This document shows positions 6,463-56,848 of a stretch of 64,000 nucleotides of DNA, piece by piece (the first letter of the stretch is position 1; every line of letters starts with the position of its first letter). The DNA is from Candidatus Moraniibacteriota bacterium (GTDB lineage: Bacteria; Patescibacteriota; Minisyncoccia; Moranbacterales; UBA2206): assembly GCA_963775955.1 (NCBI GenBank), contig CAVZKT010000002.1, forward strand, positions 160,474 through 224,473. The letters run 5' to 3'. The position numbers and the translations under genes were made by a program. The notes beneath the pieces are model-generated. The model searched no databases. It had not been told where the DNA came from and was given only the letters and a program-made list of their open reading frames with translations.

Positions 6463-6614
6463 ACAGGACGGGTGAATGCCCGTTTTTATCGTTTGAAAAA
6501 TAAAAACAAAAAAATGCGGCCGAAAGGCCTAAAAAATTAAAGGCAAGATTCCTTGCTTTATCCTTAGTGAATAAGGAAAATAATGCAAAAAACCTGATTT
6601 TTCAGGTTTTTTTG
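6463..6614 (+). ncRNA. candidate ~150-nt small RNA or riboswitch-like leader (promoter to intrinsic terminator) upstream of murA
   Basis: Starts about 7 nt after the -10. Hairpins acgggugaaugcccgu, ggccgaaaggcc (GAAA tetraloop), uccuuagugaauaagga. Ends with aaccugauuuuucagguu + U7 (6589-6614). A separate TTGAAT-18-TATACT promoter follows before murA. No ORF. Confidence 0.45.
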
Positions 6615-6668
6615 TTTTTCGCAAAAGCGGGGTTGAATTATTTTCGAGATTTAAAATATACTAGTACT

Positions 6669-7936
<1,268 letters not shown>

Positions 7937-7974: not shown

Positions 7975-8419
7975 GTGAGAAAGAAAAAAGCCGGGGAAAA
8001 ATACATAGGAGTCGGAGGGGGAATTTTAATTTTCAATAAAAAAGGAGAGGTTTTATTGATGAAGCGAGGCAAAAATTCCAGCAATGAGATAGGCTGGTGG
8101 AACTCAGCCAGGAGGGACCATTGAATTTGGAGAAAAAGCGGTGGAAGGACTTAAAAGAGAAATAAAAGAGGAGTTGAATATAAATGTTAAAATCTGGGGC
8201 TATGCTCCGCATGTGGATCATATTATTAAAAGAGAAAAACAGCACTGGATCGCGATTATTTTTTTAGCGGATCTAAAGAGCGAGACGCCGAAAATTATGG
8301 AACCGCATAAATGCGATGAAATAAAATGGTTCGATTTAAAAAAATTACCAAAAAAATTGACGCAATCAACAAGAGAGCCAATTGAAAATTATTTAAAAGG
8401 AAAATATATTAAATTGTAA
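7975..8419 (+). CDS. NUDIX hydrolase (probable GTG start), one frameshift near 8100
   Basis: GVGGGILIFNKKGEVLLMKRGKN...IGWW then PGGTIEFGEKAVEGLKREIKEELN (Nudix box GX5EX7REUXEEXGU) in the +1 frame. Confidence 0.6.
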
Positions 8420-9461: not shown

Positions 9462-10640
9462 TGGATGAACGTTCCAGATTGGCAGTTATGCGATAGGCAT
9501 TGACGTCCGTGCGTTTTTAAAACAGCGAACGGGAGTGGAGGAATATTCTTATCAAGTTATAAAACACCTGACGAATAAATTAAATAATGCTCAGGTGGTT
9601 TTGTATTTGCGCAAAAAATCAAACAGTAGATATTACGAATTACCGGAAAATTGGAAAATAAAAATAATCAAATGGCCATATTTATGGACACAAATTGGGT
9701 TGTAAGCTTGGAAATGTTTTTTCATCCAGTGGATGCTTTGTTTATTCCGGCGCATACGGTGCCGATGATTCATCCAAACAATACAATCGTGACAATCCAT
9801 GGTTTGGAATATGAATTTTGTCCCGAAGGCATATTCTTTTTGGGCGAGGCTGTATATGCGCTGGTCTATTAAAAATTCCTGCCGGTGGGCGAAGACGATC
9901 ATAGCCGTATCTAATAATACTAAAAAAGATTTGATGAGATTGTATAAAGTGCCGGAGGAGAAGATCAAGGTGATTTATGAAGGATATGACGCTGATGCGA
10001 AATCCCAAATCCCAAATCCCAAATCCAAAATAAATCCCAAATTACAAATCCAAAATTCAAAATTTTTACTATTCGTTGGTCGTCTCGAAGAGCGCAAAAA
10101 TATTGCTGGCATTATTAAAACTTTTGAAATTTTAAAAGAACAGTATAAATTACCGCATAAATTAATTTTGGCCGGATAAGTTCGGATATGGCACGAGAAA
10201 AAATAGAGGCTTCTATAGAGGATTCTAATTTCAGAAAAGATATTATTTTACCGGGATATATAACTGACGAATGAAAAATGGGAACTTTTAAAAAACGCGG
10301 ATGTATTTTTATTTCCGACATTCTATGAAGGTTTTGGCATTCCGATTTTGGAAGCGCAAAGCGTGGGCGTGCCAGTGGTGGCAGGAATAATTCTTCTATT
10401 CCGGAAGTTGTGAAACGTGTTTCTAAAACCGAGTTTTCAAATTCTCTAAAACTCGGTTTTAGAACAGTGACGAAAATTCCGCGATTTTAGTTAATCCAAT
10501 GAATGCCGAAGAGATAGCCGATGCCGCCTATAAACTGATTTCGGACAAAGCCTTGAGAGATGATATAATAAAGAAAGGCTATGAGAATGTGAAAGATTTA
10601 GTTGGGAAAAATGCGCAGAGGAAATCGCTGAAATTTTGAC
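9462..10640 (+). pseudogene. degraded family-4 glycosyltransferase paralogue (at least 5 frame disruptions/stops) containing an AAATCCC-type microsatellite
   Basis: GT4-like pieces in three frames: IGIDVRAFLKQRTGVEEY; DTNWVVSLEMFFHPVDALFIPAHTVPM; KFLLFVGRLEERKNI; EGFGIPILEAQSVGVPVVAG. Microsatellite aaatcccaaatcccaaatccaaaataaatcccaaattacaaatccaaaattcaaaa at 9999-10062. Confidence 0.6.
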
Positions 10641-10985: not shown

Positions 10986-12272
10986 ATGGATAAAAGTCAA
11001 GAGCAATTAAATAACACTAAAAATAACCCTTTAATAAAGGGAAATATTAAAGTTGCAATAGTCCATGACTTTCTGGTCCAATGTGGAGGGGCGGAGAGGG
11101 TTTTGGAGGTGCTCGCGGAAATGTTTCCGGAAGCGCCGATTTATACTTTGCTTTATGATAAAGAAAAAATGTCCGCCCAAGGCGGACCAGCCTTTGGCTG
11201 GCGCAACCGAGATATTCGCACATCTTTTTTGCAAAAATTCCCCAAATTTATCCGCAAAAGATACAAATATCTCCTGCCCCTGATGCCGACCGCGCCGGAA
11301 GTTTGGGATCTGCGTGATTTTGACCTGGTAATTTCCAGTTCCGGCGCCTGGAGCAAAGGAATAGTCACCCGCCTGAATACTATTCATATTTCCTATCTTC
11401 ACAGCCCAATGCGCTTTGTTTGGGACGCCAACAGTGAATATCTGCGCGGACAGAAAAAATGTTTTCTGGTGAACTTTTTTTCCCGGATGCTTCTCAATTA
11501 TATCCGCGTCTGGGACAAAGTAGCGGCTGACCGGCCAGATTACATTATTGCCAATTCAAAATATACGCAAAGGAGGATTGAAAAATATTATGGAAGAGAA
11601 AGTGTGGTTATTTACCCGCCCGCATCGCTACGCGAGCCCGCCTGCAACGATTGCATTTCGGGCAGGCAAGCTCGCTTGCGAAGCGTTGCGGGCGGGCCCG
11701 CCGATAGAAATGACCCGGGGTATTTTCTCGTTGTTTCCCGGCTTTCGCCTTACAAAAATGTAGATAAAATCGTGGAAGCGTTTAATAAGCTGGAATTGCC
11801 ACTGGTGGTAATCGGAGAAGGGCAACAAAAAAAATATTTGCAGAAAATCGCCGGGAAAAATATAAAAATTTTAGGCTGGCAAACGGATGAAAAAAAAGCG
11901 GAATATTATGCCAACGCCTGCGGGTTTATTTTCGCGAGCGTAGATGATTTTGGCATTACCCTGGTTGAAGCTATGGCGCACGGCTTGCCGGTGGCGGCCA
12001 TTCGCAAGGGCGGAGCATTGGAGATAGTGATCGAAGGAAAAACCGGCGAGTTTTTTGACGAGGCCACGCCGGAAGTAATTGCCGATGGAGTGAGAAGGCT
12101 AGTGGAAAATTTGGGGGACTATGACAAAGAGTTTATTGTTGGCAGGGCGAAAGAGTTTAGCAAAGAACGGTTTGTCAGAGAGTTTAGGGAATATATAAGT
12201 TCTGTAATTACAAAATCCAAAATCCAAATATCAAACAAAATCCCTGCCTGCCGGCAGGCAGGCAAAATCTAA
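10986..12272 (+). CDS. family-4 glycosyltransferase (GT4) carrying a ~90-nt GC-rich palindromic in-frame insertion and a C-terminal microsatellite/palindrome-encoded tail
   Basis: GT4 pattern: DFLVQCGGAERV...; YPPAS ... YFLVVSRLSPYKNVD ... EGFG-like FGITLVEAMAHGLPV. Insert 11625-11720 encodes LREPACNDCISGRQARLRSVAGGPADRND. The tail ITKSKIQISNKIPACRQAGKI is encoded by a microsatellite plus the palindrome cctgcctgccggcaggcagg. Confidence 0.75.
   Translation: MDKSQEQLNNTKNNPLIKGNIKVAIVHDFLVQCGGAERVLEVLAEMFPEAPIYTLLYDKEKMSAQGGPAFGWRNRDIRTSFLQKFPKFIRKRYKYLLPLMPTAPEVWDLRDFDLVISSSGAWSKGIVTRLNTIHISYLHSPMRFVWDANSEYLRGQKKCFLVNFFSRMLLNYIRVWDKVAADRPDYIIANSKYTQRRIEKYYGRESVVIYPPASLREPACNDCISGRQARLRSVAGGPADRNDPGYFLVVSRLSPYKNVDKIVEAFNKLELPLVVIGEGQQKKYLQKIAGKNIKILGWQTDEKKAEYYANACGFIFASVDDFGITLVEAMAHGLPVAAIRKGGALEIVIEGKTGEFFDEATPEVIADGVRRLVENLGDYDKEFIVGRAKEFSKERFVREFREYISSVITKSKIQISNKIPACRQAGKI
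11625..11720. repeat. GC-rich palindromic insertion inside the GT4 ORF (arms gcccgcctgcaacg / cgttgcgggcgggc; inner palindrome gcaagctcgcttgc)
   Basis: Local GC far above genome average. Dyad symmetry. In-frame (90 nt). A related palindrome lies in holB at 12549-12586. Confidence 0.6.
12243..12262. repeat. GC palindrome cctgcctgccggcaggcagg (copy 1 of 3)
   Basis: Perfect 20-nt palindrome. Identical cores at 32673-32691 and 54204-54223 (28-nt identity with the latter including the flanking gcaaaat). Confidence 0.8.
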
Positions 12273-12325: not shown

Positions 12326-13268
12326 TTGAAATTTGGATTTAAAAACATTATGCACATCATCGGCCACAATAAAATCACTAACCTTTTAAACAGAAGCATT
12401 GCTCGAGGCATTGTAGGACAGGCCTATCTTTTTTCCGGTCCGGAACATCTGGGCAAGTTTACCGTGGCTTTGGATTTTGCCCAAAGATTGGCTGGCGGCA
12501 ATGTGAAAATAAATCCAGACTTAATAATTATCAGACCGGAAGGGAACCCTGCCCGCAATGCTGCGCATAGCGTTGCAGGCGGGGAAAAAAGGAATTGTTA
12601 AAAAAACTCCGCCGCGGCGGATTAAAATCGAACAAATCCGCGATCTTATACATAAGTTAAGCCTGATGGCCGCCAGCGGAAAATATAAAGTTGCCGTTAT
12701 TGACGATGCTGACCGCTTGAATAAAGCCGCGCAAAACGCGCTACTGAAAACTCTGGAAGAGCCGAATGACAAAATAGTGCTGATTTTAATTTCTCAAGAC
12801 AATAAAAAAATACTTGCGACGATTAAATCGCGCTGCCAACGGGTTAAATTCGGTCCGGTTTCCCGGGAAGAGCTTGAAAAAAATATTCCGGTTGGCGAAA
12901 AAAACAAACAAGCTTTAATTTTTTGGTCGCTGGGTCGTCCCGGATTGATGCTGAGTCTTGCGAGAGACAAATGTGAAGTTGATTTTAGAGAAGATGCGGC
13001 GGCGGAGCTGAAAATGTTGCTGAATAAAGGTTTAGCAGAAAAACTTGCTCTAGCCGAAACATTGGGAAAAGACACTCGTGAAGCGGCTAAAAAACTGAAT
13101 TTGTGGATGGTGATCCTGCGTGAAAATCTGCTGGGCAAGGGCCTTTTTGAGAAAAACCAGAAAAAATATTTAAGGATTATTGAAAATATTGAAAAAAGCC
13201 TGGAATTAATAAAAGAAACCAATTCAAATGCACGGCTTATTTTGGAAAATTTATTTTTGCATTTTTGA
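12326..13268 (+). CDS. holB: DNA polymerase III delta' subunit (HolB), frame broken at a ~38-nt GC palindrome (12549-12586)
   Basis: N-terminal part GQAYLFSGPEHLGKFTVALDFAQRL...NPDLIIIRPE; downstream frame IKIEQIRDLIHKLSLMAASGKYKVAVIDDADRLNKAAQNALLKTLEEP...SRCQRV. The junction coincides with the palindrome ccctgcccgcaa..ttgcaggcgggg. Confidence 0.7.
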
Positions 13269-17918: not shown

Positions 17919-18719
17919 ATGGTTTTTACAATTAGGGATCAATTCGAAAAAGGGTCTTCAGATGTTTTAATGAAAAAATTAAAAAAAGGAAGTGGTGAGT
18001 CTTCCAAAAAACCCGAAAATACGGGAAAAATTTTAGAGACAGCCAAAAGTGTCGGCGCGGCTGCGGCTGGTTTTGAGTTTCCAAAAGACGTTTTTGACAC
18101 ATATGCGGGAGAAGATAAAAGAAGCATTGAAAAAATAACAGAATATCAGGAAGAAATAAGAAAACAGCTGGCGGAATTTGGAGATGGAGGGAATAAGGTG
18201 GATAAAAATCAATTTGCCTTGGATTGTTTGTATCTTCTGGGCAATAAGGCTCCTAAAAAATTAATAAAAGCTTTTGAAGAAAAATTAAAAAAAGAAAAGC
18301 AAACAACTCCGGTATTGAAATCCGAGCCAAAGCCGGAGCCGAAACGGGAAATTAAACAAGAACAGAAGCCAAATCCGGAGACAGAAACGGAAAAGAAAAA
18401 AGAAATAGAAGAGGAGGAATTTAAGGAGGGGCTAAAAAAAATAAAAACCGGGGAAGAATTACTGGCTTATCTGGAATCATTAGGAGAAATCGCGGTTAGA
18501 AGCGAGCAAGAAGGAGTAATATTTTTTCCCGTCTATATTAAAGAAGTAAAAAAGAGCTTAGAAGACAAGCATGAGGTAATTTGGAAAACTATGCGGGATA
18601 AAATCAGGGAAATAAGGGGCGATAAAGAAACAAAAAAATACGAAAAAAAGGAAGAAAAACTTTCCTTTGAAGAATTCAAGGGAAAACATAAGGATATATG
18701 GGAGAAAAAATCTTTTTGA
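17919..18719 (+). CDS. hypothetical K/E-rich low-complexity protein, first gene of a five-gene same-strand cluster
   Basis: 266 aa, highly charged. No family recognised. Confidence 0.5.
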   Translation: MVFTIRDQFEKGSSDVLMKKLKKGSGESSKKPENTGKILETAKSVGAAAAGFEFPKDVFDTYAGEDKRSIEKITEYQEEIRKQLAEFGDGGNKVDKNQFALDCLYLLGNKAPKKLIKAFEEKLKKEKQTTPVLKSEPKPEPKREIKQEQKPNPETETEKKKEIEEEEFKEGLKKIKTGEELLAYLESLGEIAVRSEQEGVIFFPVYIKEVKKSLEDKHEVIWKTMRDKIREIRGDKETKKYEKKEEKLSFEEFKGKHKDIWEKKSF

Positions 18720-34350: not shown

Positions 34351-34605
34351 TCAAGACAAAGACGGCACCAGCACTGCGTATTTGTGCAAATTATTAAGTT
34401 GTTTTTCGTTCAGGTTTTTGGAGTTTGCAATTGCTTTTTGAATCAAATCTTTGGAAAATTCTAATGAAGTTCCAACGAAGACTCGCTGGGGCGGCACATT
34501 CTTTCTGAGAAAATCCTCAATATAAATCTTGTGTTCCGGAGTCAGGGCTGAATCAGGATTTTTTTCCAGATAGTTCGCTAGCGCTCTGCGAGCTAATTTT
34601 GTCAT
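34351..34605 (-). CDS. hypothetical small protein (84 aa)
   Basis: ORF only. Confidence 0.35.
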   Translation of the reverse strand: MTKLARRALANYLEKNPDSALTPEHKIYIEDFLRKNVPPQRVFVGTSLEFSKDLIQKAIANSKNLNEKQLNNLHKYAVLVPSLS

Positions 34606-34693
34606 ACTGTCTCCCTTGCCTGCGGTTTCAACAAAAGATTTTTCAGTTTCCTGGCTGGTAGCGGCGGCAATTACCTGCTTTTCTTCCTTACTT

Positions 34694-34936
34694 TCAGTTG
34701 TAGCCGCTTCGTTTTCGCGAAATTATGCTTTCTCCATTAACTTCTCCTTGTGAAGTCATTTCCTGGCTGGCCAACTCTTGAGATGGCGACTGGCTTCTCT
34801 TAGAATAGGAATAAATTCCTCCGGCAATTGCAACAACGATTAATATGCTGATAATAATGCGGAGATTGTCCTGGAGCCATTGTTTTGCTTTTCCCGTTTC
34901 AATTTCTGTTTTTTGTTCATTTTCCATTTGTTTCAC
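34694..34936 (-). CDS. hypothetical small membrane protein (80 aa)
   Basis: One TM helix IIISILIVVAIAGGIY. Confidence 0.35.
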   Translation of the reverse strand: MKQMENEQKTEIETGKAKQWLQDNLRIIISILIVVAIAGGIYSYSKRSQSPSQELASQEMTSQGEVNGESIISRKRSGYN

Positions 34937-34948
34937 CTTCCTTTCTAG

Positions 34949-35005
34949 TTTGCCCTGTTAAATACCGCAAAGCGGTAATCCCGAGTGCTCGGGATTATTT
35001 AATGG
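34949..35005. repeat. Family B-like hairpin element (CCCTGTTAAATA ... TTATTTAATGGGG)
   Basis: Inverted termini related to B2/B3. Internal hairpin atcccgagtgctcgggat. Confidence 0.5.
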
Positions 35006-35841
35006 GGTGAAAATTATTAATGCTTGCCCCGCACCAATTTTTGTAAAAACTTCCGTAATTAATTGTCAGAGCCGATAGGTGGCTTCGCCTTTGGGCTATG
35101 CAATAATTCATAGCTTTGTTTGAAATTGGTGCCGGGGTGAACTTTCATTGAAGCTTGTCTTTGAATTTTAGCAAAACAGGAAACCGCGTCAACTGGACAA
35201 AAACGCTTGTCTAGGGCATAATATTGGGATAAAATCTCAAATCCTAAATCTTAAATCCCAAATAAATCCCAATTTCCAAAATCCGAAATTTTTTTAATTA
35301 TCCGATAAAAAGTTTTTAATTTTGAAAATTATAATTTTGAATTTATTTAGATTTTATAATTTTGAATTTGTTATTTTTAAACCAGAAATGAAAAATTATT
35401 AGAATAAAAACACGGTTTGTTTGTAATAATTTATGAAGTTTGGTAAAAATACTACCTGTGGATAACTTTCTTGCTATTGCAAAATAAAAAAATATGGTGT
35501 ATAATTAAAAGCAAGTAAAATTATTTTATCAAAATAATTTTATGAAAAATAAAAATCAGGTCGAACAAAAAACATTAAAATACCAACTCAAGGCGAATTT
35601 CGCCAAACAGTAAAAAAAATAGAAAGGACGGTGAAACAAAATGGCAAAAAAGAAAAAGGCTGCAAAAAAGAAAAAGAAAGGTGGAAAAAAGAAAAAGAGA
35701 TAGTCTTTTGTAGCTAATCCCGGCCTGCTTCTGCTCGGCACTAATAGGGTGCAAGCACTTGGTAGGCTGGAAAATATATTATCAACTTTTGGTTTTTAAA
35801 CTGCTTTTTAGCAAAAAAGATCAATTGTTATAAAGCAAAAA

Positions 35842-35993: not shown

Positions 35994-36875
35994 TTAAAAG
36001 ACAATCCTGCAGACCCGCCATTTGCCAGCCATGTCTTTTTTAAACTCAAGTTTGGCGCCTGGCAGGATGAAAGCCGCTAGCTTTGTAAGAGCAGGTTTTT
36101 GTTCAGGACTAATTTCCATGAAACATGAAACATGAAACATGAAACATTTACTTTTTATTTTTTTTATTTGTTTTAAAAGTTTTGTGTAATGTCCTAAACC
36201 GCTCTGCGAACTAAATAAGGCGGATTTTGGCTCGAAATTTTTAACATCCCGCGGAGTTGAATTATAAATTTCTTTTGAAAGGTAGGGAAGATTTGCCAGG
36301 ATAATTAAATTGCTACATTGTTGTATTGTTGAATTGTTACTAAGTTTTTTGTTTTTTAGCAGATCAGATTTTAAAAAAGTAATATTTTTATCCACTTTAT
36401 GTTTCCTGGCGTTATGTTTTGCAACCAAGAGGGCTTTATTAGAAATATCAATGCCAAAAAATCTCATATTGTTCCATGTTCCATGTTTTATGTTATGTGC
36501 CAAGGATGTTATTATATTTCCGCTGCCGGTGCCAACATCTATAATAGTTTTTGGTTTGTAGTTTTTGGTTTGTAGCTCCTTGATAGCTAATTCTACTAAT
36601 AATTCAGTTTCGGGGCGGGGGATGAGCGTGTGTCTGTTTACCTTAAAATCAAGCCCAAAAAACTCCTTGCGGCCTAAAATATAGGCCAAAGGCTCTCCGC
36701 GTCTGCGGCGAGCCAGCAAGTTTTTAGTTTTTAGTTTCTGGTTTTTAGTGAGGTTGTGTTCCGGATGGGCTAAAACAAACTCACGAGTTTTTCCAATCTC
36801 GTGAGCGATTATGAGCTCCAAATCCAGAGCGTCAATTTTGTTATGATATTTTTTGCAAATTTCTCTTATTGTCAT
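35994..36875 (-). CDS. prmC: release factor glutamine methyltransferase PrmC (HemK) with in-frame low-complexity insertions
   Basis: HTLIPRPETELLVE; IIDVGTGSGNI; NLPY (NPPY-like). Inserts encoded by ggtttgtagtttttggtttgtag, gtttttagtttctggtttttag and catgaaacatgaaacatgaaacat repeats. Confidence 0.8.
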   Translation of the reverse strand: MTIREICKKYHNKIDALDLELIIAHEIGKTREFVLAHPEHNLTKNQKLKTKNLLARRRRGEPLAYILGRKEFFGLDFKVNRHTLIPRPETELLVELAIKELQTKNYKPKTIIDVGTGSGNIITSLAHNIKHGTWNNMRFFGIDISNKALLVAKHNARKHKVDKNITFLKSDLLKNKKLSNNSTIQQCSNLIILANLPYLSKEIYNSTPRDVKNFEPKSALFSSQSGLGHYTKLLKQIKKIKSKCFMFHVSCFMEISPEQKPALTKLAAFILPGAKLEFKKDMAGKWRVCRIVF

Positions 36876-37961
36876 TTGGCCATTTTCAATTTTATATCTT
36901 CATCGGCCAGAGCGGTAATAATGTCTTCAATATTTCCGTCCAGAATACCGATGGCAAATTGCTCCAGCTCTGCTTAATCGCGGTGGTCGGTGACGCGGTC
37001 CTGCGGGAAAATTATAAGTCCTAATTTTTTCACTGCGGTCGCCGGTGCCAATTTGGTTTTTTCTGACGTCGCCCGTTTCTTTGGCTCTTTTTTCTTCTTC
37101 CGCCTGCAATAACCGCGAACGCAAAACTTTCATGGCCTTATCCTTGTTTTTAAGCTGGGATTTTTCGTCCTGGCAGCTAACTATTAATCCGGTGGGAATA
37201 TGGGTGATACGCACGGCGCTTTTAGTGGTGTTTACTGACTGTCCGCCCGGGCCGGAAGAGCAAAAAGTGTCAATTCTCAGGTCTTTTTCTTCAATTTTAA
37301 GCTCTACTTCTTCAGCTTGGGGGAGGACTGCCACCGTAGCGGTGGAAGTATGGATTCGTCCCGATTTTTCTGTTTCCGGAATTCTTTGCACGCGGTGCAC
37401 GCCGGATTCATATTTCATCTTACTGAATACATCTTTTCCATTTATTTCAAAAGTAGCTTCCTTGAAACCGCCGATTCCAATGGTACTCGAATTTAAAAGC
37501 GCCGTTTTCCAGCCGTTTTTTTCGGCATAATGGCTGTACATGCGGAAAAGATCCGCCGCAAAAAGGGCGGACTCGTCTCCGCCGGCGCCGGCGCGAATTT
37601 CTACAATGACATCTTTGGAGTCATTTGGGTCTTTGGGAATCAGAATTTTTTCCAGTTCTTTTTCCAGCTTCGCTTTTCTTTCTGAAAGTTTGATATTTTC
37701 GTCCATGGCCATTTGTTTAAGCTCGCCGTCTTCCTCTGAGTTTATAATTTTGGCGTTTTCTTTCATTTCCCTTTCTGTCTTCTCGTATTCATTAATAACA
37801 TTCACGACTTCGGCCAGTTCCGCCTGTCTTTTGCCAAGTTCCGCCATAATTTTCCGATCAGAAACCACCTCGGGATCGGCGAGTTTTTCCTGGATTTCGG
37901 CGTATTCTTTTTTAATCTCGTCGATTTGGTTACGCATATTGATAAAAATACCATAATACAC
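36872..37961 (-). CDS. prfA: peptide chain release factor 1 (PrfA); C-terminal region carries a 1-nt frameshift (~36990-36998) and an in-frame TAA (36974-36976) before the conserved last ~33 codons, whose stop overlaps the prmC start (ATGA)
   Basis: [39 protein letters not shown] (GGQ). Frame C gives [44 protein letters not shown] ending at 36872. Confidence 0.75.
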
Positions 37962-37994: not shown

Positions 37995-38816
37995 TTACTC
38001 TAGAGGGCTTTTAATTCTTTTTAAATTAGGGTTGGTAACTTTTGTGTATAACTGGGTTGTGCGGATATTTTGGTGTCCCAGTAATTCCTGCACATATCTC
38101 ACATCCACGCCATTTTCTAATAAATGAGTGGCAAAGCTGTGGCGCAGGCTGTGGAAAGTGGCGTCTTTTTCTATTCTAGCTCTTTTCAGCGCTTTTTCAA
38201 AGACCAGTTGGGCCGTCCTTTCGGTGAGTTTTCCGCCGCGCTCGGACTCAAAAACATATTCATTGCCATGCTGGAGCGCCATAAGTTCAGAAAGATCCGC
38301 CTTTAATTTTTCCGGAAAAACGGTAATCCGATCTTTATTTCCCTTGGCGTTTTTTAAATGGACTGTTAATTCATTCAGGTTTATATCCCTGATTCTCAGG
38401 TTTACAGCTTCGCTGACGCGCAGTCCGGCGCCATAAGAAAGGGAAATGAGCAATTTATGCTTTCTGTTTTCAATTGAATCGATAATTTTTTCTATTTCAG
38501 CCCGCGAAAGCACTACCGGCAGTTTTTTAGAGGTTTTGGCGAATTTAATGTCTATGCGGATCCGGCTTCTGTATATTTCCCGGTAAAAATATTTAATGGC
38601 GTTGAGATGTAAATTGATCGTCTGTGGTGATTGCCCGCGCGCCTGTTTTTTCAGGAGATATTTTTTAAGCAGGGGAATATCCGGGTCTCGCTTTACTACT
38701 TTTATGTAACTGAAATAGTCTGCCAGACAGCCCAAATAACTTTCAATCGTCCGGGGACTATAATTTCGCAATTTCAACTCATCTTTAATTTTACCCAAAA
38801 GCTCTTTTAAGTCCAT
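37995..38816 (-). CDS. tyrosine site-specific recombinase (XerC/XerD / phage-integrase family)
   Basis: 273 aa. GLRVSE (R), HSLRHSFATHLL (HxxR), LLGHQNIRTTQLYTKV (H...Y) catalytic signature, intact. Confidence 0.85.
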   Translation of the reverse strand: MDLKELLGKIKDELKLRNYSPRTIESYLGCLADYFSYIKVVKRDPDIPLLKKYLLKKQARGQSPQTINLHLNAIKYFYREIYRSRIRIDIKFAKTSKKLPVVLSRAEIEKIIDSIENRKHKLLISLSYGAGLRVSEAVNLRIRDINLNELTVHLKNAKGNKDRITVFPEKLKADLSELMALQHGNEYVFESERGGKLTERTAQLVFEKALKRARIEKDATFHSLRHSFATHLLENGVDVRYVQELLGHQNIRTTQLYTKVTNPNLKRIKSPLE

Positions 38817-52322: not shown

Positions 52323-53039
52323 GTGGTAAGATTAAATCGCATGCGCTTTGAAATAATTACAATTTTTCCAGAAATTTTTAATTCCTATTTTTCGGAATCA
52401 ATAATTAAGCGCGCCCAAAAAGCGGGGCTGATTGACGTTGGAATTAATGATTTACGGGATTTTACAACTGACAAGCACAAAACGGTGGACGACACGCCAT
52501 ATGGCGGCGGAGCGGGAATGGTGCTCAAAATTGAACCCATCTGGCGATGTGTCCAATTTATAAAATCCAAAATCCAAAATACCAAATTCCAAATAAATCC
52601 AAAATCCAAAACTCAAAATTCAAAAACGCGGATTATTTTATTTTCCGCCAAAGGAAAAAAGTACACGCAGAAAGATGCCAAGAGACTGGCTAAATATGAT
52701 AATTTAATTTTAATTTGTGGGCGCTACGAAGGTGTAGACGAACGGGTGGCAAAATATATTGCCGATGAAGAAATTTCCATCGGCGATTTTGTGCTGACTG
52801 GCGGAGAAATTCCGGCGATGATCTTGGTTGATTCAATATCCAGGTTAATTCCGGGGGTTTTGGGGAATATTGAAAGCGCCAAAGAAGAATCGCATAATAT
52901 TGAAGGTTATTTAGAGTTTCCCCAATACACAAAGCCGGAGATTTATAATAAATGGAAAGTTCCGAAAATTTTGCTTTCCGGAAACCATGAAGAAATAGAA
53001 AGATGGCGGAAAAAACATTCTAAAATTTTAGGAGCTTAG
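52323..53039 (+). CDS. trmD: tRNA (guanine37-N1)-methyltransferase TrmD with an in-frame microsatellite-encoded insertion
   Basis: [13 protein letters not shown]...[16 protein letters not shown] ... insert [21 protein letters not shown] ... [12 protein letters not shown]...GDFVLTGGE. Confidence 0.85.
52558..52625. repeat. AAATCCAAA-type microsatellite inside trmD (in frame)
   Basis: aaatccaaaatccaaaataccaaattccaaataaatccaaaatccaaaactcaaaattcaaaa. Confidence 0.8.
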
Positions 53040-55441: not shown

Positions 55442-56848
55442 ATGCTGGATTTATCCAAGATCAAAAAAGCGTATCTTATCGGCATCAAAGGCGCCGGCAT
55501 GGCGGCGGTGGCGGAAATTTTACATGGGCGCGGAGTTAAGGTTTCTGGATCGGATACGAGTGAGAAATTTTTTACCGACGAAATTTTGGGGAAAAATAAC
55601 ATAAAATATTTTGAAAAATTCTCCACTGATAATCTTCCTGCCGACGCGGATATAATTTTATACGCTACATGTTATGGCGAAGATAACAATGTGGAACTGG
55701 CGGAAGCGAGAAAAAGAAATTTAAATATATTAAGCTATCCCGAAATTTTAGGTGAATTATTCAAGGAAAAAATGGGCATTGCGGTTTGCGGGACGCACGG
55801 CAAAACAACCACAACTGCGCTTTTGGCTGAATGTTTGCGCGTGGCCGGAATTGATCCGGGTGCGATTGTCGGCAGTAAGGTTATTCAGTGGCAAGGAAGT
55901 TCACTGGCCGGCAACGGGAAATATTTTGTGGCTGAAGCAGATGAATATCAAAATAAATTGCAATACTACAATCCATTCGCGGTGATACTTACCAATGTTG
56001 ACTGGGATCATCCGGATTATTTCCCGACATTTACTGAATACAAAAAAGTATTTGCTGATTTCGTGGCGCGCATTCCCAAACACGGATTTTTGACGATCTG
56101 GGGAGACAGCACGGATACGCTGGATATTTCTAGGCAGGCTAGGTGTGAAATTTTGTCCTATGGTTTTTCTGAAGATTGTGATTATACAATTTTCAATTTT
56201 CAATTTTCAATTTTCAATGAAATTCTAAATTCCAATGACCAAAACTTTCAAAAATTTGATTTAAAATTTAAAGAAAAAAGTTTGGGGACATTTGAAATAA
56301 AATTAGTTGGCAAGCATAATGTCTTGAACGCCGCGGCGGCGGTTGCAGTGTGCCATAAACTGGGAGTTGATATGGAAAAAGTGCGCGAGGCTCTCAAAAA
56401 TTTCCAGGGAACAGCGCGGCGGTTTGAATATATCGGTGAGCGTAACGGCGCGATTCTCATTGATGATTATGCCCATCATCCGGAAGAAATTAAAGCCACT
56501 CTTAAGGCGGCGCGGGAAATTTATCCAGAAAAAAATATTATAACTGTTTTTCATCCGCACACTTTCACTCGCACTAAGGCGTTTCTCCAGGAATTCGCGC
56601 AGAGTTTTAATGATGCTGATCAAGCCATCATCATTGACATTTACGGCAGCGCCCGTGAGGTTCAGGGGGGAGTTTCTTCCAAAGAACTGGTTAATTTAAT
56701 TAATAGATATGATCGCGATAAGGCCAAATATATTCCGACAATTAATGAAGTTATGGAATGCCTGAAAGATAAAATCGGCGCCGGGGACGTTGTCATTTCA
56801 ATGGGCGCGGGGGATGTGTGGAGGGTGGTCAGTCAGTTGAAAATATAA
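55442..56848 (+). CDS. murC: UDP-N-acetylmuramate--L-alanine ligase MurC with an in-frame microsatellite insertion (56189-56220)
   Basis: IGIKGAGMAAVAEIL; GTHGKTTTTALLA; insert FNFQFSIFNEILNSN encoded by (attttca)n; GTARRFE. Confidence 0.85.
   Translation: MLDLSKIKKAYLIGIKGAGMAAVAEILHGRGVKVSGSDTSEKFFTDEILGKNNIKYFEKFSTDNLPADADIILYATCYGEDNNVELAEARKRNLNILSYPEILGELFKEKMGIAVCGTHGKTTTTALLAECLRVAGIDPGAIVGSKVIQWQGSSLAGNGKYFVAEADEYQNKLQYYNPFAVILTNVDWDHPDYFPTFTEYKKVFADFVARIPKHGFLTIWGDSTDTLDISRQARCEILSYGFSEDCDYTIFNFQFSIFNEILNSNDQNFQKFDLKFKEKSLGTFEIKLVGKHNVLNAAAAVAVCHKLGVDMEKVREALKNFQGTARRFEYIGERNGAILIDDYAHHPEEIKATLKAAREIYPEKNIITVFHPHTFTRTKAFLQEFAQSFNDADQAIIIDIYGSAREVQGGVSSKELVNLINRYDRDKAKYIPTINEVMECLKDKIGAGDVVISMGAGDVWRVVSQLKI

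Follow-up and report, generated by a model that had tools for sequence, protein, structure and literature searches.

The gene prfA, for release factor 1 (RF1), appears in this contig with a shifted reading frame and a TAA before its end, which would place a UAA codon inside the gene of a factor that itself decodes UAA. Does this lesion belong to the organism, to some form of recoding, or to the assembled sequence? A sequence-only reading of the window (the whole 64-kb stretch of DNA analyzed here) had identified the gene as prfA, coupled to prmC by an ATGA overlap, and had put the frame change at about 37004, the TAA at 36976-36974, and the final TGA at 36874-36872. All of these assignments stand. 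Its account of the damage, a single frameshift together with a nonsense mutation by substitution, does not: alignment at the DNA level shows three insertions and no substitution. Judging from comparisons with related genes, the locus is very probably an ordinary functional prfA-prmC operon (Moranbacteria/Parcubacteria, CPR) carrying three spurious consensus insertions from assembly or polishing.

Reading frames of the prfA-prmC locus

The prfA DNA was aligned with the prfA genes of eight related Moranbacteria/Parcubacteria. Relative to all eight there are precisely three insertions (1 + 1 + 2 nt, four bases within 55 nt) and zero further gaps (Table 1), which is not the pattern of a nonsense mutation. 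The coding path accordingly runs through frame A (codons 1-311), frame B (312-319), frame C (320-328), and frame B again (329-353). The deposited frame departs from RF1 sequence after ...EKIRTYNFP (Pro311, CCC 37007-37005). The defining features of RF1 are the GGQ peptidyl-tRNA hydrolysis motif and a P-x-T tripeptide; both are in frame A, as SGPGGQS and as PET within RIPETEK, and both are invariant among the aligned homologues. Opposite the short peptide read from frame C, protein alignment gives the homologue consensus (I/V)KxNWSNLP.

The apparent TAA sits between the second and third insertions, with 33 sense codons after it in frame B. Around it, ten frame-B codons (D*AELEQFAI) do not match RF1; the corresponding residues IKQSWSNLP are encoded in the third frame, which the earlier reading had left out of consideration. 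What looked like an in-frame UAA comes from ATT-AAG (Ile-Lys) when the reading is displaced by one base. From these alignments the 353-aa RF1 is predicted to have no internal stop, and the TAA is an out-of-frame artefact of reading frame B straight through. The C-terminus described earlier as conserved beyond the TAA is indeed conserved in that frame, although only from Gly329 (36949) onward.

Table 1. Positions of the prfA-prmC features and of the other broken genes. Coordinates are those of the window; inserted bases are in square brackets and alternative bases at one position are separated by slashes.
Feature	Position	Strand	Remarks
prfA (RF1) locus as deposited	36872-37937	-	1066 nt = 1062 nt (353 codons plus stop) + 4 extra; located by tblastn of repaired RF1
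prfA start codon ATG	37937-37935	-	
prfA frame A, codons 1-311 (Met1-Pro311)	37005-37937	-	Undamaged; tblastn 100% over residues 1-311
Insertion 1 (+1)	37004	-	G in tttccc[g]cag, or equally one C of 37005-37007; wobble of Pro311 (CCC/G); gap column in 8/8 relatives
prfA frame B, segment 1, codons 312-319	36980-37003	-	QDRVTDHR
Insertion 2 (+1)	36979	-	G in caccgc[g]att, or C at 36980; wobble of Arg319 (CGC/G); gap column in 8/8 relatives
prfA frame C, codons 320-328	36952-36978	-	IKQSWSNLP; predicted real coding frame spanning the apparent TAA
Apparent TAA	36974-36976	-	T of ATT (Ile320) + AA of AAG (Lys321) in frame B reading; no stop in predicted true frame
Insertion 3 (+2)	36950-36951	-	tc in ttgcca[tc]ggt, or the bases "at" of 36952-36951; wobble of Pro328 (CC A/T/C); two gap columns in 8/8 relatives
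prfA frame B, segment 2, codons 329-353	36875-36949	-	Gapless against T. thermophilus RF1 up to residue 345
False TGA	36927-36929	-	Ends the deposited 344-aa ORF after 33 out-of-frame codons
ATGA overlap	36872-36875	-	prfA TGA 36874-36872 with prmC ATG 36875-36873
prmC (RF N5-glutamine methyltransferase)	35994-36875	-	Undamaged; TIGR03534 221.8 bits (cut-off 199)
murA	6567-7827		Two breaks: ~7014 (cccggg[c]ggg; repair restores PGGC motif) and ~7803 (ctt[g]att)
NUDIX hydrolase gene	7975-8419		Break ~8107 (tca[g]cca; repair restores GxWxxPGG)
Family-1 glycosyltransferase (GT1-family)	9475-10640		At least 8 frame changes, repeatedly back to the same frame
holB	12326-13268		Break ~12580
Conserved membrane protein gene	34354-34951		Break ~34725
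EcoRV-like nuclease	39110-39898		Two breaks: 39341 (+1) and 39429-39430 (+2); repaired product gapless against EcoRV over both junctions
tsf	43815-44451		Break 44193; one +1 insertion in DNA alignment with six relatives

Deleting the four bases yields an RF1 of 353 aa, the modal family length, which gives gapless alignments with 15 homologues (78-88% identity) and, up to residue 345, with T. thermophilus RF1. The repaired protein scores 506.3 bits against NCBIfam NF001859 (cut-off 400), covering profile positions 2-344 of 347, and 495.7 bits against TIGR00019 (cut-off 423). For the deposited ORF the corresponding scores are 458.6 and 454.2 bits, with only profile positions 2-309 of 347 covered; the segment absent from it corresponds to T. 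thermophilus RF1 residues 308-345. A continuous ORF of ~350-360 codons, as in other RF1 genes, is found only without the 4 nt. In scores, PET and GGQ motifs, length, and linkage to prmC by ATGA, the locus is otherwise that of a bacterial RF1 (NF001859/TIGR00019) in a prfA-prmC operon, and the sole difference is the four extra bases at three sites in the deposited DNA.

The repaired RF1 has no sign of decay. Of 197 family-invariant columns, defined with the 15 homologues, it differs at one (D344 for E, a conservative change), while the homologues' own leave-one-out deviations at such columns range from 0 to 11. Together with the confinement of all lesions to 55 nt, this is not the picture of a decaying pseudogene. 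The earlier view, of an error or else a very recent lesion, holds. By our own calculation, three independent, uniformly placed events would fall so close together in a 1062-nt gene with P ~0.008, which argues that the three lesions are not independent mutations.

A search with the A/B/C/B reconstruction returned thousands of RF1 matches, the best of them in Parcubacteria and Moranbacteria (353-354 aa, 78-88% identity, 100% query coverage). The sole 100%-identical entry, P0004 of a public protein collection, is the miscalled 344-aa ORF from the same contig and forms a cluster of one. Apart from that entry, the closest RF1 among ~15 billion proteins has 88% identity, and the searches turned up no other assembly of the species. 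Exact-protein contig look-ups of the deposited RF1 ORF, PrmC, the recombinase, S2, and MreB gave no match, and the genome was not found among GTDB representatives. A 23-mer scan of JGI metagenomes for prfA gave one match only, which is unrelated: AAGCAGAGCTGGAGCAATTTGCC occurs exactly in JGI contig Ga0114938_1000031 (L081, 5921-5943), with dissimilar flanks, apparently by chance.

Two observations concern the immediate neighborhood. The upstream neighbor of prfA, on the same strand, encodes a XerA/integron-integrase-like tyrosine recombinase (37995-38816; NF040815 220.2 bits, cut-off 220). Within prmC there are three sets of tandem repeats, CATGAAA x4.4 at 36117-36147, TAGTTTTTGGTTTG x2.2 at 36545-36575, and AGTTTTT x4.4 at 36719-36749, and the ORF stays open through them.

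Breaks and repeats elsewhere in the window

The window was screened with ORFs from related loci, Pfam, three-frame reading, and repaired translations. Roughly 19 indels were found in the 64 kb, most of them in two patches, 7-13 kb and 34.7-44.2 kb, and long genes outside these patches, of up to 938 codons, are undamaged. At each of the other broken genes (Table 1), removal of 1-2 bases brings back conserved motifs or a gapless alignment. The prfA break had been set apart from the others as different in nature; it is of the same kind as the other frameshifts.

Several of the affected genes are hard to reconcile with real damage. murA, holB, tsf, and prfA are each essential and single-copy; all lie in one contig and are mended by changes of 1-2 nt at a site, and their joint inactivation is incompatible with a viable cell. 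Because so many nearby essential genes are broken likewise, the prfA break is most likely an assembly error, and its insertions most likely belong to a window-wide, patchy set of assembly or polishing indel errors. The glycosyltransferase and the EcoRV-like nuclease are accessory genes and could be true pseudogenes. In the former, an AT-rich inverted repeat (~10412-10455, TCTAAAACCGAGTTTT ... AAAACTCGGTTTTAGA) lies between the conserved IPEVV and ILVNP segments, and part of the disruption of this gene may therefore be real and not a consensus error.

Other signals were set aside. Of three tblastn frame switches, the one at ~33730 reflects two genes overlapping by ATGA (a fused ORF is found in only one relative), that at ~47015 is conserved tRNA genes read as protein, and that at ~30550 is an antisense-strand signal. 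At the junction 18667-18719 between two ORFs, neither ORF has a family match. A frame tracker using a 3-periodic Markov/Viterbi model of the window's long ORFs was too coarse for indels and was excluded from the counts.

The window also has repeats of several kinds. An AAATCC-rich element of ~60 nt, with a 7-nt sub-repeat and a 32-nt period x2, is present in three copies: in the glycosyltransferase (10000-10063), where it encodes KSQIPNPKSKINPKLQIQNSK; in frame within trmD (52562-52625), whose ORF remains open; and in the inter-ORF gap downstream of prmC (35232-35290). The element is reminiscent of repeats inserted in frame within genes, for example the Rickettsia palindromic elements. GC-rich palindromes are found in coding sequence of this 40%-GC genome at 12548-12583, ~12605-12620, and 11640-11693. 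A loop in holB carries CCTGCCCGCAATGCTGCGCATAGCGTTGCAGGCGGG followed by CCGCCGCGGCGG, with the holB frame change adjoining; similar arms (GCRTTGCRGGC) lie within the glycosyltransferase ORF at 10986-12272, and the translated form of a comparable element in a relative (L002) is TPACIAMRSIAGR. A tandem repeat CAATTTT x4.6 at 56187-56218 leaves the ORF 55442-56848 open, and a further tandem repeat of this group, whose units are 7 or 14 nt long and match perfectly or nearly so, lies at 47318-47347.

Three further groups of genes may be mentioned. An EcoRV-type restriction-modification pair spans 39110-40982, with the nuclease (E ~1e-40 to EcoRV structures after repair) followed, after a 4-nt overlap, by a D12-class N6-adenine DNA methyltransferase (39891-40982). 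The first 1679 nt hold the 3' part of a 23S rRNA gene, cut by the window edge, and then a 5S rRNA gene. Four intact tRNA genes (Thr-GGT, Tyr-GTA, Thr-TGT, and Trp-CCA) are clustered at 46202-47519.

Origin of the extra bases

Nearly all of the indels whose direction can be determined are insertions. Those that are informative fall at codon wobble positions (37004, 36979, 36950-36951, 7014, 7803, 8107, 9702, 9823, 10184, 10197, and 10272). The codons concerned, for Pro, Gly, Arg, Ser, and Leu, are mostly four-fold degenerate, and the result looks like stacked wobble bases: CC[C/G], CG[C/G], CC[A/T/C], GG[G/C], CT[T/G], TC[A/G], GG[A/T], and GG[C/A]. The wobble bias is statistically modest, ~(2/3)^7 for junctions validated by conserved residues. 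Classic residual long-read errors are changes in homopolymer length. In contrast, several of the breaks here are non-homopolymer wobble insertions, with cgc[g]a, cca[tc]g, tca[g]c, gga[t]a, and ggc[a]c impossible as homopolymer extensions, and this points to stacked strain alleles.

In a consensus built from co-assembled strains, two or three alleles might be written in tandem at synonymous SNP sites, which would turn SNPs into +1 or +2 insertions and SNP-rich patches into patches of insertions. In prfA, three such spurious insertions would carry the reading from frame A into B, then C, then B again, and individual reads would be expected to have single bases at each of the three sites. The indel spectrum suggests allele stacking by a mixed-strain consensus as the simplest single cause that fits it. 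The data would likewise be explained by a read-error process with a context bias, and the conclusion for prfA is unchanged either way. Miscalls at CpG or methylation motifs (CCCG, CACG) were also considered and set aside, the GC-rich contexts being equally accounted for by Pro, Gly, and Arg wobble codons.

Frameshifting indels in assembly consensus sequences, with fragmentation of gene calls as a result, are documented (PMC9262707; bioRxiv 10.1101/2021.08.23.457338). The window matches the errors reported for long-read or mixed-strain MAGs in having many split genes, essential ones among them, patches of errors between long clean stretches, and repair by 1-2 bases.

Alternative readings and implications

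How much the organism depends on this gene can be gauged from its stop codons. Of 52 ORFs in the window, 33 end in TAA, 10 in TGA, and nine in TAG, the last including tsf. RF1 is therefore required, since TAG terminates nine of the 52. A tblastn search with the repaired RF1 found no second RF1 or RF2 in the 64-kb window.

The alternative that survives best is a genuine, very recent complex micro-insertion at the 3' end of prfA, leaving an RF1 of 311 native and 33 junk residues. The extra bases do stand in a public entry (P0004), CPR bacteria have reduced, symbiont-like genomes, and a very recent event predicts no decay, so that the single difference among 197 invariant columns is compatible with it. 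Against this, the like breaks in murA, tsf, and holB within 64 kb could not be borne together by a viable cell, TAG is used normally as a stop, and three events in 55 nt demand one unusual event. The lost segment, moreover, belongs to solved RF1 sequence (T. thermophilus residues 308-345). Compensation by another prfA copy elsewhere is conceivable, as is a defective minority variant caught by the assembly; the window itself offers no second RF1 or RF2. On balance a genuine insertion is unlikely, and that the cell lives with the extra bases, with an RF1 that has lost its 42 native C-terminal residues and with TAG ending ~17% of its genes, is more unlikely still. If the extra bases were real, either UAG termination would have to work with an RF1 scrambled at its C-terminus, or another gene elsewhere would have to supply a compensating factor.

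Programmed recoding, in which ribosomes would shift frame at the prfA sites in an autoregulation like that of prfB (RF2), has far less in its favor. RF2 is a precedent for a release factor that regulates itself through frameshifting, and prfA likewise encodes a release factor and, as deposited, requires a +1 shift. +1 shifts are known at CCC-N sequences, and at the first site (CCC-G) re-pairing of tRNA-Pro in the +1 frame is possible in principle. The likeness ends there: prfA would need three consecutive shifts (+1, +1, +2), lacks a CUU-U slippery codon, and has neither a UGA nor any other in-frame stop at the three shift sites, the zero frame (TTT CCC GCA GGA) being open for 33 more codons. 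We know of no mechanism for a 2-nt skip over "tc." None of the 38 nearest genomic relatives and none of the 15 aligned homologues is interrupted, and unrelated genes in the window are broken similarly in dissimilar contexts. Programmed recoding of prfA is effectively refuted by this non-conservation, and its probability is put at close to nil.

Loss of RF1 with reassignment of UAA or UAG as a sense codon, so that the TAA would be translated, is just as improbable and is refuted by the frame analysis: although UGA is recoded in some CPR lineages (Gracilibacteria, Absconditabacteria), the prfA TAA is outside the coding frame, TAA and TAG both end genes here, and no conserved gene in the window needs stop read-through once the indels are accounted for or repaired, in agreement with the earlier judgment against reassignment.

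An intact prfA-prmC operon with consensus insertions thus has consequences for how this genome is read. Automatic gene calls from the contig, such as the 344-aa "RF1" P0004, would be shortened artefacts. A more general caution is that a nonsense codon in an RF1 gene can vanish once its three frames are compared with those of relatives, and the pattern of insertions at wobble positions may aid in diagnosing mixed-strain consensus errors. Should the lesion be real after all, it would bear on the dispensability of the RF1 C-terminus. As the evidence stands, prfA-prmC and its neighbors are best treated as intact in metabolic or genetic-code inference on this genome.
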